From the IMG/VR virus record IMGVR_UViG_2529293141_000023: DNA of 19,068 bases; one strand, 5' to 3'. This DNA comes from a virus (taxonomy: Duplodnaviria; Heunggongvirae; Uroviricota; Caudoviricetes). Shown one piece after another: positions 6,601 through 9,600 of the stretch; positions within the stretch are counted from its first letter, which is position 1, and every line of letters begins with the position of its first letter. The position numbers are program-made.

Positions 6601-9600
6601 ACCAGTAATAAAGCCATTTCCACATGTTCTAAAATCAATCCTATACACATTTCTATACACATTTAGCAGGCGCTTGATGACTTACTCAGGCAAATATTTA
6701 CCGGAATTTTTCCGGTTATCCCCTATGAAGCTGGTGGGCTTTACCTGTTTTTATCCGACTGTGTCACATAACTTTTGTTCCGGCATGATAAAATCGTCTG
6801 GTCATGTCCATTACTCATTGTTGACCTCTTGTTGTGTTTCTTTGGTGGCATGCCGTAGTGTTATCGCACTACGGTTTTTTTTCCCTCAAACTGAAATGGA
6901 TTTTTTCCGGTAATCACACTTCCGCCTGATTCATCTGTGTACCCAATGTGTGGTAAGCACCTCATACAGCAAACGAGGCAATCGGTATTCTGCTCCTTCA
7001 TGGCGTTTTTAGCGCTGTGGTGAATAACAGAATGACGGAACGATAGCCTATGGATACTCACGACAAGATACCACCAGCATATTCATACTCCCCGCAACCA
7101 GTACCGGAAGCCTGGAAAATGCGATTCAGCGCTAACAGTGCGTGGTTCTTCACCGATGATTTAACCGTGGTTGATGCCTGGCTAAAGGCCCACAGCGACG
7201 GCGTGGAGGTTGTACCGCTGTTTTGTGGCTCTGACAGTGACGGTAAGCGGGATACCGCATTTGAGGAGGTGTGCGCGGCTCTTGCCCGTATGCTGCATAT
7301 GCACCGCTTGTTACTTGAGAAAACAAGATACCAGGAACATGTTACTGACCCTGAATGTCTGCGGGAGCTCCACGAAGCCCCAATACAGGCGCTAAATATT
7401 CTGGTTAAACACAAACTGTCCTGACCGTGTCATGGAGGCCTGCACTTTTTGTCCAGGTCTCCCGATTCCCATCCGGTCCTCCGCCCATCGAATTTTAAGC
7501 CGCCTGTAAGCCTGTATGACGTTTTCCGGTGAATGCTCGCCCCGATAGTGAACATTGCGCCAGAGTGCGATTTATCCCCATTGCTGTGGATGTTTGAGCG
7601 TGAGCGCTGGTAACTGGTTAATGAGGTCGTGCCTGTGCGCTTGCACTTAACGGGCAACCGTGGGAGATGTGGGGGGATTTTACGAAATTTTCGTAATTTC
7701 CCTTTCCTTGTTCCGGCGGGGCTAATTCTCGCGATTCGCGATAATTAAGTTTAATCAATGGCCTGTAGTGATTATTTAATACATTGTGCTGGGGAGGGTT
7801 ACGAAATTTTCGTAAGCCAGCCTTCCTTGTTCCGGTGGGGGAAGGTGTGGTCATTATGACCATCCCTACGGTAATGATGATTCACGCTTTGCTAAAGGTA
7901 TTACGAAAATCATAATACCTTCTGCTGGTGGTGTCCGGCTTGTTCGTGGCTAATCACTCCCTCCATACCTGGCTTTTTCCGGTTAACCTTTAATCAGGCT
8001 GGTGGGCTTTACATGCCCTTGATCACCATAATGATGATTCAGGTATGCACCTTTTCCCCCAACGGGGTAAAAGCTCCAACTGTAACGATGTTCGTTATGG
8101 TTGCCTCGATGGTCTGAGTGGTCATTATGACCATTCAGGGTGCACCGTCCTTTGTCTCGTGGCATAATTATCAGGCGATTACGTTTTTCATGATTGATTG
8201 GCAAGCCGTATTTCTCCACCGCAGTTTCCTCATGACTGCGGTTTTTTTATGCGCGTTATGCCGTCACTGAATCGCGCTCAACATACCGATCCATCTCCAG
8301 CTTCACATCCAGCATCATCAACATGCCTTCAACAACCCCCTCCGCTTTGTGAAGGCGTTTACCTATACAGGTGTCAGAGCACCCATGTTTCCGTGCCAGC
8401 GCCATGAACGTCTCCCCCAACACGTAATAATCAACCAGCAAGTCATGCAGATCGCGATTGTTCCGGTAAAGACGGGCTATGCACCCGCATATCACCATCG
8501 CATCATCGTCACAGCACTGTGAGCGTGATGTTATCTTTGCCGGAATAATCCCCTTAAATCCTGCGGCAACGGATGACCAGGTCACATTCTCGCGATTATT
8601 TGCCGCCCACGCTCCCCAGCGTTCCAGAACCTGCTGAATATCACGCATCAACAATCACCTCGTAATAGCTGTGGTTACATACCCGTAATTCAGGGATGCA
8701 CTGGATGAAAGTTAAACTACGAAAATTTCGTAGCTTGTGACTGTCTTTCAGCCAGCTTGTTAACAGTCCTCAGAAGTGAGGAATGTAGCCAGCGCAATTT
8801 TGCGTTTGCGGTCTCCTCAAATTGAGGTTTCCGAAAATATCAGTAGGTTAGGCCAAAGCTCAAAAATGAGCTTTGTAACAATATCAGCCAGTTAACGCCG
8901 TCAGCTACCCGGCTCAGAATTGAGCCGCCTTTTAATCAACAAGTTACCGCCGTAACCGCTCCGGCTTATGCCACTGGTACGGGGGCGCGTTCTGGCGTTG
9001 CTCCTGCCGTCTCCTGACCACCATATGTTCCACCGTGTACAGCGTGCTTAGAAAAAACCCCAGATTCGTGGTTTTTCTCCGGCTCTTTTTGCGACTCGTT
9101 TAAAACCAGTCACAGAGTCGCTTAAAGCTACTCAGTTCGACACCATCACGTCACATCAGCCTGATTTTCAGCGCTCACGCTGTCCGGCTGCGTGGCCTCC
9201 TGTTTGCGCTGGCGTTCTCTCTGCTCTTCAATCATGAGGATTAACTCGCGTTCCTCCTGCTCTTCAATAATCCCGTGAATTATCTCTGTTGGTGAACGTT
9301 CGGTCATCGGCCCTCCTGTGTGTCACTGTTTTGGTGTCAATGTCACTGTTACGGCGTCACCGTATTTTGCCCAAATCAGGCAAAATTGCTTACCCGAATC
9401 CGGTAAATTTGCGCGCTTTTTCGATCATCGCGTATCGGTTTCGTTTTGCGCGGCTGTTGCGTTTCGTTTTGCGCATTTTTTTGCGCACTTTTTCCGGTGG
9501 CCTTTCCCCCTGCAAGCCGCGTCATATCTGGCTTTGCTCTGTTTGTCTGTGTGATCGATTTTGTGATCGGTTTTATGATCGATTTGCGCACTTTTTTGCG

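Follow-up and report, generated by a model that had tools for sequence, protein, structure and literature searches.

The closest described counterpart of the DNA element studied here lies in phage HK022, whose Roi protein reportedly binds a site within its own gene, near an integration host factor (IHF) site, with IHF stabilising the binding. In the papers accessible to us, Roi appears only as a DNA-binding protein that affects lytic growth. The element that we have analysed is an array of short palindromes at positions 8700-8960 of a 19,068-nucleotide stretch of DNA (IMG/VR virus record IMGVR_UViG_2529293141_000023, Caudoviricetes), which, taken at its full length, we call the window. Judged from its integrase, AlpA, primase and att features, the window corresponds to a ~13-kb satellite of the phage-inducible chromosomal island (PICI) type inserted at tRNA-Gly. 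As in the internal site of HK022 roi, a short perfect palindrome is followed ~10 bp later by the same-strand consensus WATCARNNNNTTR, with a distance of ~17 bp from palindrome centre to consensus. The likeness extends to sequence in phages H-19B and HK620, where a roi segment is ~87% identical to one of the palindromes (hairpin 2) with its IHF box, the palindrome itself being unchanged. Whereas the phage site is single, lies within coding sequence and belongs to the same element as the gene of its binding protein, the satellite array has three to four sites in non-coding DNA, inverted relative to transcription, in an element that encodes no Roi, and it includes palindromes carried by no known roi allele. 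It shares the geometry of the roi operator and, for hairpin 2, its homology, and lacks the trait that defines that operator, a position inside roi in cis to the gene of the binding protein. We hold with moderate confidence that the array is a series of composite DNA sites for IHF and for a dimeric palindrome-binding protein, which for the CTCA/TGAG type of palindrome would be a Roi-type protein of the helper phage. The array is best filed under a design that is already known, the palindromic operator with an IHF site, its arrayed, satellite-borne and trans-acting form being the new aspect; we found no description of palindrome-IHF arrays in PICIs in the accessible literature.

Other described systems resemble the array in part. 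Iteron origins, such as the lambda ori inside gene O and the SaPI/PICI ori beside the primase gene, are also arrays of short symmetric repeats, and IHF sites are common in origins. By contrast, no identical unit recurs within the hairpin array, whose elements are too diverged for Tandem Repeats Finder to report a tandem array. The island has an iteron field elsewhere, at 12416-12735, directly 3' of the DUF927 primase gene, where the 9-bp motif GTYGTCCCA occurs ~15 times in either orientation, together with an A/T-rich tract and with IHF consensus sites at 12469 (minus strand) and 12685 (plus strand), and this field is likely its replication origin. Since the iterons lie there and attR is 2.1 kb distant, the array was rejected both as an origin and as a set of att arm sites. 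In lambda cosB, R sites for the small terminase subunit are interleaved with the IHF site I1. The array is similar in that several, here putative, protein sites are phased with an IHF bend in non-coding DNA, near packaging genes in some relatives; unlike cosB, it has no cosN or cosQ, consists of varied palindromes instead of repeated R elements, and is independent of packaging type. The terminase R sites of cosB are described in PMC6739421, whose Fig. S1 supplied our cos reference sequences; the only window match to a lambda-type cos (cos1/cos2 of EcCICFT073, cosN GGGCGGCGACCT) has two mismatches, at 10671, which is chance level, and was discarded. According to a passage of PMC3333891, citing Boccard and Prentki 1993, BIME-1/RIB (RIP) elements consist of REP palindromes whose linker contains an IHF site, and they stand at the 3' ends of transcription units. 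The PICI arrays share with them palindromes and an IHF site after an operon's last gene and a copy number that varies between strains, but their palindromes are short (11-24 bp) and perfect, their modules are co-oriented rather than alternating, and they are not dispersed: matches to the module family are confined to PICI ends and phage genes and are not scattered through E. coli chromosomes. The REP core pattern gave a single, chance-level match in the window, outside the array, and a REP/BIME-1 identity was set aside.

The original prediction, made from the window alone, listed four CTCA...TGAG palindromes upstream of a Q gene. All four are present where it placed them; they are exclusively of the CTCA/TGAG subtype, with spacers of N3/4 between CTCA and TGAG. 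Against an expectation of 0.64, the 19-kb window contains five matches to CTCA-N3-5-TGAG, of which four fall within 8769-8924, and none of 200 shuffles reached five. The list was, nevertheless, incomplete, as three more perfect palindromes had been missed (Table 1). Under a uniform definition (perfect arms of at least 5 bp, spacer of 2-5 bp), positions 8700-8960 hold seven perfect palindromes, a density ~7 times that expected from 1000 dinucleotide shuffles (1.03 +/- 1.0), none of which reached seven. Also overlooked was a conserved box behind hairpins 2-4, which surfaced in the direct-repeat analysis (families D1 and D2) and is an exact IHF consensus. The core consensus WATCARNNNNTTR occurs ten times in the window, where 1.4 matches are expected, a number reached in 0 of 200 shuffles. 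Palindrome and box together form a composite site, or module, of ~35-40 bp in which a perfect palindrome precedes a same-strand IHF consensus, and successive sites are 44 and 52 bp apart. Strong IHF sites such as lambda H' carry an A/T-rich tract ~10-20 bp 5' of the core; in the array, the A/T-rich palindrome centres (aat, aaaa, gaat), which lie 15-19 bp 5' of the core, are candidates for such a tract. Two further IHF consensus matches, 18 bp apart on the minus strand (6522-6552), stand in hairpin-like sequence just outside attR and may belong to the att region or to the tRNA-proximal flank.

Table 1. Array elements and adjoining genes, with their positions in the window.
Feature	Sequence	Positions	Strand	Remarks
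Perfect palindrome	CTACGAAaatTTCGTAG	8717-8733	no strand	First array element on the Q side; without adjacent IHF site
Hairpin 1	CCTCAgaagTGAGG; extended form TCCTCAgaagTGAGGA (TCCTCA..TGAGGA)	8768-8781; extended form 8767-8782	no strand	
Perfect palindrome	CGCAAttTTGCG	8793-8804	no strand	In other PICIs, forms a module together with an IHF site of its own
Hairpin 2	CCTCAaatTGAGG	8815-8827	no strand	Same palindrome inside H-19B/HK620-type roi, encoding ..PQIEV..
IHF consensus	TATCAGTAGGTTA	8838-8850	+	Starts 17 bp from hairpin 2 centre
Hairpin 3	AAAGCTCAaaaaTGAGCTTT; extended form CAAAGCTCAaaaaTGAGCTTTG	8855-8874; extended form 8854-8875	no strand	
IHF consensus	TATCAGCCAGTTA	8882-8894	+	Starts 17.5 bp from hairpin 3 centre
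Hairpin 4	GGCTCAgaatTGAGCC; extended form CGGCTCAgaatTGAGCCG	8911-8926; extended form 8910-8927	no strand	
IHF consensus	AATCAACAAGTTA	8934-8946	+	Starts 15.5 bp from hairpin 4 centre; overlaps ancestral phrog_1561-type stop codon
Palindrome	GTTACcgccGTAAC	starts 8943		Perfect; inside the phrog_1561-type 3'-end relic
Relic of phrog_1561-type gene 3' end	..PERLRR*	8943-8966	-	Anchor for gathering related PICI arrays
Truncated small gene		9146-9307	-	53 aa, N-terminal half of a 105-aa phrog_1561 homologue
Q antiterminator gene		8256-8648	-	Pfam PF06530 (Phage_antitermQ), full length, E 2.3e-50; PHROG 79

Other satellites have, at their ends, pieces of 8712-8981 that are ~90% identical; examples are capsid-forming or TerS-bearing islands beside phoQ (O157:H7 and further strains) and an island with Q beside dinD. 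In related PICIs the stop codon of a small PHROG 1561 gene always marks the start of the array, and related arrays gathered via the 3' end of this gene came to 71 loci, reduced to 62 distinct 3' regions; a scan of genome contigs anchored on a 93-aa protein had retrieved two loci only. The 62 regions contain 139 IHF consensus sites on the plus strand and 17 on the minus strand. A perfect palindrome (arms of at least 5 bp) stands just upstream in 37 of 52 distinct IHF contexts, compared with 3.6 in shuffles and 13.2 in random 33-mers of the same regions. To avoid the circularity of picking modules by the IHF consensus, we also counted from the palindromes: in 67 of 330 distinct contexts a plus-strand IHF consensus starts at +15 to +18 from the palindrome centre (at +17 in 43 of them), against four in the mirror orientation. 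Across modules, the box keeps its ATCA and TT, as the search pattern demands, with free variation at the W, R and N positions.

The palindromes, on the other hand, are highly diverse among PICIs, including CCTCAaatTGAGG, GCTCAgaatTGAGC, TCCCCCaatGGGGGA, TTCGCCgctGGCGAA, GCGCAttttTGCGC, CCTGCattGCAGG, TTTCCACCaatGGTGGAAA and others. In a set of 17 distinct ones, each arm position shows two to four Watson-Crick pair types and every palindrome is still perfect. Given how widely the arms vary, CTCA/TGAG is one subtype and not the defining motif. An array has two to five CTCA-type hairpins and one to six IHF sites, and module order and number differ even between close relatives. The GCTCAgaatTGAGC module, that of hairpin 4, occurs in at least nine distinct PICI arrays, and two of the commonest PICI palindromes are restricted to PICI-sized contigs. 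Hairpin 1 is followed in other PICIs by CGCAAttTTGCG and then by an IHF site, which has been lost here via fusion to the next module. The palindrome at the Q-side edge is conserved in many arrays as AAACTACGAAaatTTCGTAGTTT; related to its form CTACGAAAATTTCGTAG (8717-8733), itself conserved in many PICI arrays, is a 17-bp perfect palindrome, TTACGAAATTTTCGTAA, present in two copies (7680-7696 and 7799-7815) in the non-coding stretch between Q and attR. On these comparisons, an array of palindromes with co-oriented IHF consensus boxes is a typical feature of E. coli PICIs and is not specific to Q.

The link to phage regulators comes from hairpin 2. Its exact 19-mer occurs in more than 120 IMG/VR contigs, ~100 times within roi/Rha-family open reading frames (ORFs) of 180-260 aa, where it encodes ..R(L/S)PQIEVSERINNLG.., and by BLAST its module is 87% identical over 39 bp to annotated roi of H-19B, HK620, Stx1/Stx2 phages and others. 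The roi sequence held in common with PICIs is limited to ~16 codons, the rest of the gene not being present. Within roi itself, the perfect palindrome at codons 43-56 differs from allele to allele, with AATCAATnnnTTA always 10-11 bp further on: it is CCTCAaatTGAGG in H-19B/HK620, CCTGCattGCAGG in CP-1639 and CTGCAtTGCAG in HK022. From palindrome centre to IHF consensus the distance is ~16.5 bp in H-19B roi and 17 bp in HK022 roi. The change from CA..TG to GC..GC between roi alleles alters amino acids and keeps the symmetry, an argument for selection on the palindrome as such within the gene. In HK022, the sole IHF consensus in the 6 kb from 31.0 to 37.0 kb, a segment that includes roi and Q, is the one beside the roi palindrome; the 38 kb of HK620 contain a single copy of the palindrome, next to one of only five IHF consensus matches. 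Codons 40-63 of roi show almost no synonymous variation, and the same is true of codons 22-44, in a sample made up mostly of close relatives. The hairpin 3 module resembles, weakly (E 1e-3), part of a KilA-N gene in Salmonella phage UPF_BP1, in which a near-consensus IHF box is likewise spaced at 17 bp, and no phage gene counterparts were found for hairpins 1 and 4. A match to the Rha genes of Sf101/720R6 (E 0.7) lies on the opposite gene strand without an IHF box and was taken as chance. The roi alleles (loci L183-L262 and L263) are mosaic exactly at the module, reading ..PQIE-VSERINNLGFNVQYEH-YVFEGEQ.. or ..PQIE-DCGRINGLGLNQSF(C/R)V-YVFEGEQ..; the variant tract (attgtggaagaatcaa..) equals the spacer of many PICI modules, a hint of gene conversion between roi and the arrays of satellites.

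How, then, should the array be read? The Q gene is genuine, as originally claimed, and the palindromes lie 120-280 bp before its start, between it and the truncated small gene. Operators for one regulator dedicated to Q, the central idea of the original prediction, would agree with the CTCA/TGAG half-sites that the four palindromes share at this short distance, and no consensus sigma-70 promoter for Q was found between array and Q, so that Q may depend on the array. But conservation does not follow Q. The array is conserved across PICIs mostly without it: Q adjoins the array in only 3 of the 71 related loci and is missing from the other 68, and only 37 of 806 E. coli records that match window positions 8200-9400 (Q and its upstream region) cover at least 80% of that stretch. 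In a by-eye alignment with two related loci (L003 and L004), Q sits between two blocks that are contiguous in other PICIs, and it is, from this comparison, a cargo insertion that separates the array from the remaining 3' non-coding part of the PICI and does not regularly accompany the array. Control sites specific to Q are thus very improbable; of the suggestion that a dimeric regulator binds here, the perfect palindromes and their fixed spacing and orientation to the IHF consensus favour the binding sites, and the tie to Q is not supported. The other suggestion made originally, stem-loops in a leader RNA, can be widened to any role at the RNA level, in which minus-strand stem-loops in an operon 3' untranslated region or Q leader would stabilise, process or attenuate the transcript or act antisense to roi mRNA. 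From gene order, the region probably lies within or after a minus-strand operon, whose transcript would hold 19-39 nucleotides complementary to roi mRNA, and the island's ProQ/FinO-domain protein (10724-11029), with its RNA-chaperone fold, might assist an antisense effect. Both strands fold far better than shuffles (z -4.3 for minus, -5.9 for plus); since any palindrome does so, folding does not discriminate a DNA from an RNA role. Three variant hairpins examined by eye give G.U pairs on the minus strand, but the systematic count of near-palindromes with one internal mismatch (16 G:T, 15 A:C, 57 other) reveals neither wobble enrichment nor strand bias. No Q-sense hairpin has a U-tract, and hairpin 4 alone resembles a terminator, weakly and on the plus strand, antisense to Q, which led us to discard intrinsic terminators for Q. 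Rfam 15 gave no window match at gathering score and none at E <=1 in 8500-9300, and no tRNA or tmRNA was found. Strict spacing and orientation to a double-stranded DNA motif have, moreover, no RNA rationale, the modules are inverted relative to transcription in PICIs compared with roi, and most PICI palindromes lack a phage target. A role in RNA therefore appears unlikely, and the evidence as a whole favours binding sites for a dimeric protein over stem-loops.

Two further explanations dispense with a Roi-type regulator. The array might be recombination debris, functionless here, left by exchange between satellites and roi or KilA-N genes or by decay of a roi-like gene and duplicated by slippage. 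The variable number and order of modules in close relatives, the mosaicism of roi alleles exactly at the module with a variant tract equal to the PICI spacer, the KilA-N gene fragment beside the array (9018-9093), the fused module and the truncated flanking gene all point that way. Yet only ~16 roi codons are represented, on which ground a decayed full-length roi pseudogene was rejected; palindrome density far exceeds the shuffle expectation; and the palindromes have stayed perfect despite sequence change, with spacing and IHF consensus kept in 62 distinct arrays, which would not be expected of neutral debris. We regard this explanation as quite unlikely. The array might instead serve another DNA transaction, as a cosB-like packaging site or an integration/excision arm bound by a satellite protein such as phrog_1561 or TerS. 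It would be consistent with such a role that the array starts invariably at the phrog_1561-type stop codon, directly follows TerS/TerL in capsid-forming PICIs and occupies the att-proximal non-coding end of most PICIs, and lambda cosB offers a precedent for protein sites combined with an IHF site. Against it, the window has no lambda-type cosN; the array is found with three different packaging gene sets and here with none; the palindromes within one element differ from each other, as repeated sites for a single protein would not; and attR and the iterons lie elsewhere. The phrog_1561 protein, for its part, gives an AlphaFold model of three helices (pLDDT 71) with no PDB fold match at E <=0.001, which does not point clearly to a DNA-binding fold. 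A packaging or integration site is, on this balance, improbable.

The reading that we prefer, composite sites for IHF and a dimeric protein, is supported at the sequence level by the palindromes, the IHF consensus, the fixed geometry, the conservation among PICIs, the homology to a roi segment and the independence from Q, and from these we infer the binding of IHF and Roi and the consequences of that binding. IHF would bend each module while a dimeric DNA-binding protein occupied the adjoining palindrome. For the CTCA/TGAG and CTGCA/TGCAG types this protein would most plausibly belong to the Roi family, and for CTCA/TGAG it would be the Roi of H-19B/Stx-type helper prophages. None of the 71 PICI loci encodes a Roi-like protein, so Roi would be supplied in trans. 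Acting together at the operon's 3' end, IHF and Roi would compact the satellite array into a bent nucleoprotein block. Such a block could gate read-through into whatever lies downstream, here Q, for which the lack of a consensus promoter after the array leaves room. It might also be a sink for helper Roi or a sensor of the helper, here as in other PICIs, and in the latter an insulator is a further option. A further step, which we regard as possible but doubtful, is that the modules are borrowed operators, copies of the control sites of helper roi/KilA-type genes that capture or sense Roi-family regulators in trans, as a protein sponge or helper sensor, thereby coupling satellite functions, here the cargo Q, to the lytic programme of the helper, and that are swapped between satellites and phage roi by gene conversion.

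Several points weigh against the preferred reading. In the window, no IHF site accompanies hairpin 1 or the palindromes at 8717 and 8793. As the modules are paralogous, part of the conservation of the box could reflect shared ancestry, and the modules were selected via the consensus itself, although the palindrome-anchored count escapes that circularity. The sequence evidence fits the reported Roi/IHF site and does not prove that the mapped sites coincide. The palindromes TCCCCCaatGGGGGA, TTCGCCgctGGCGAA and GCTCAgaatTGAGC have no counterpart in any phage gene searched, and common PICI palindromes of this sort imply that Roi alleles cannot explain every module. The inversion of the modules relative to transcription, compared with roi, is harmless for a DNA site but leaves the gating unsupported. 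The island, finally, looks partly decayed, with a truncated neighbouring gene and one module fused to the next, and these traits, with the variation in copy number, leave room for partial decay of the array too.

If the array does bind helper Roi and IHF, it would constitute a concrete point of contact between helper and satellite; a 2018 PICI paper described the phage activator of Gram-negative PICIs as still unidentified at that time. Such binding would also explain the upkeep of 0.2-0.8 kb of palindrome-rich non-coding DNA at the ends of such small elements. On the phage side, roi, a gene found in 1071 of 5426 complete E. coli genomes (~20%) and carried by Shiga-toxin phages among others, would have a cis-element embedded in its coding sequence. 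A satellite-encoded Q could activate helper late genes, as P4 delta activates those of P2. Even if the link to Roi fails, the co-oriented module, present in one to six copies per element, provides a clean signature of this class of PICI ends.

Over 8200-9400, the window is 100% identical to four complete Shiga toxin-producing E. coli chromosomes, including that of strain 2015C-3121. The island that carries the array encodes a tyrosine integrase beside tRNA-Gly, an AlpA-family regulator (PF05930), a DUF927 primase-type protein, and SSB, ProQ/FinO-domain and PerC-family proteins, the last two from adjacent genes on the minus strand (10441-11029). attR is an 18-bp copy of the tRNA-Gly 3' end at 6564-6581; after it, direct repeats of CTATACAC at 6641-6662, found also near the integrase end, are candidate arm-type sites for the integrase. 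Next to the array, the 68-76 bp fragment at 9018-9093 takes the place of the C-terminal half of the phrog_1561-type gene. It matches KilA-N genes of HK620 (hkbK) and other phages at 86-90% identity and contains a hairpin-like element, so that the PICI has a second short stretch of a phage antirepressor-like gene with a palindrome. A 415-codon ORF at 15756-17003 on the minus strand is weakly Rha-like over its first ~100 residues (pRha E 5.9e-5, below the Pfam cut-off; PHROG 518 E 3.7e-4) and has a low-complexity middle; in the nearest genome the corresponding region is annotated by RefSeq with Icd-like proteins and is not colinear with the window here, with ~1 kb extra in locus L001. Unique to this island and below the Pfam cut-off, it was rejected as a satellite Roi-like binding protein. 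Inside an ORF (9376-9615, minus strand) that corresponds to a RefSeq hypothetical protein without a family match, the stretch 9440-9620 holds clustered TGCGCA-T6/7-TGCGCA palindromes, with five terminator-like calls on the plus strand, and three TGTGATCGATTT direct repeats; this segment may be a non-coding regulatory one. The truncated small gene has four GTCAC(T)G repeats just upstream of it (9320-9362), which may be operator sites; a similar run of GTCAC repeats occurs in the related locus L004 (~3838-3880), on the opposite, att-proximal side of its array.

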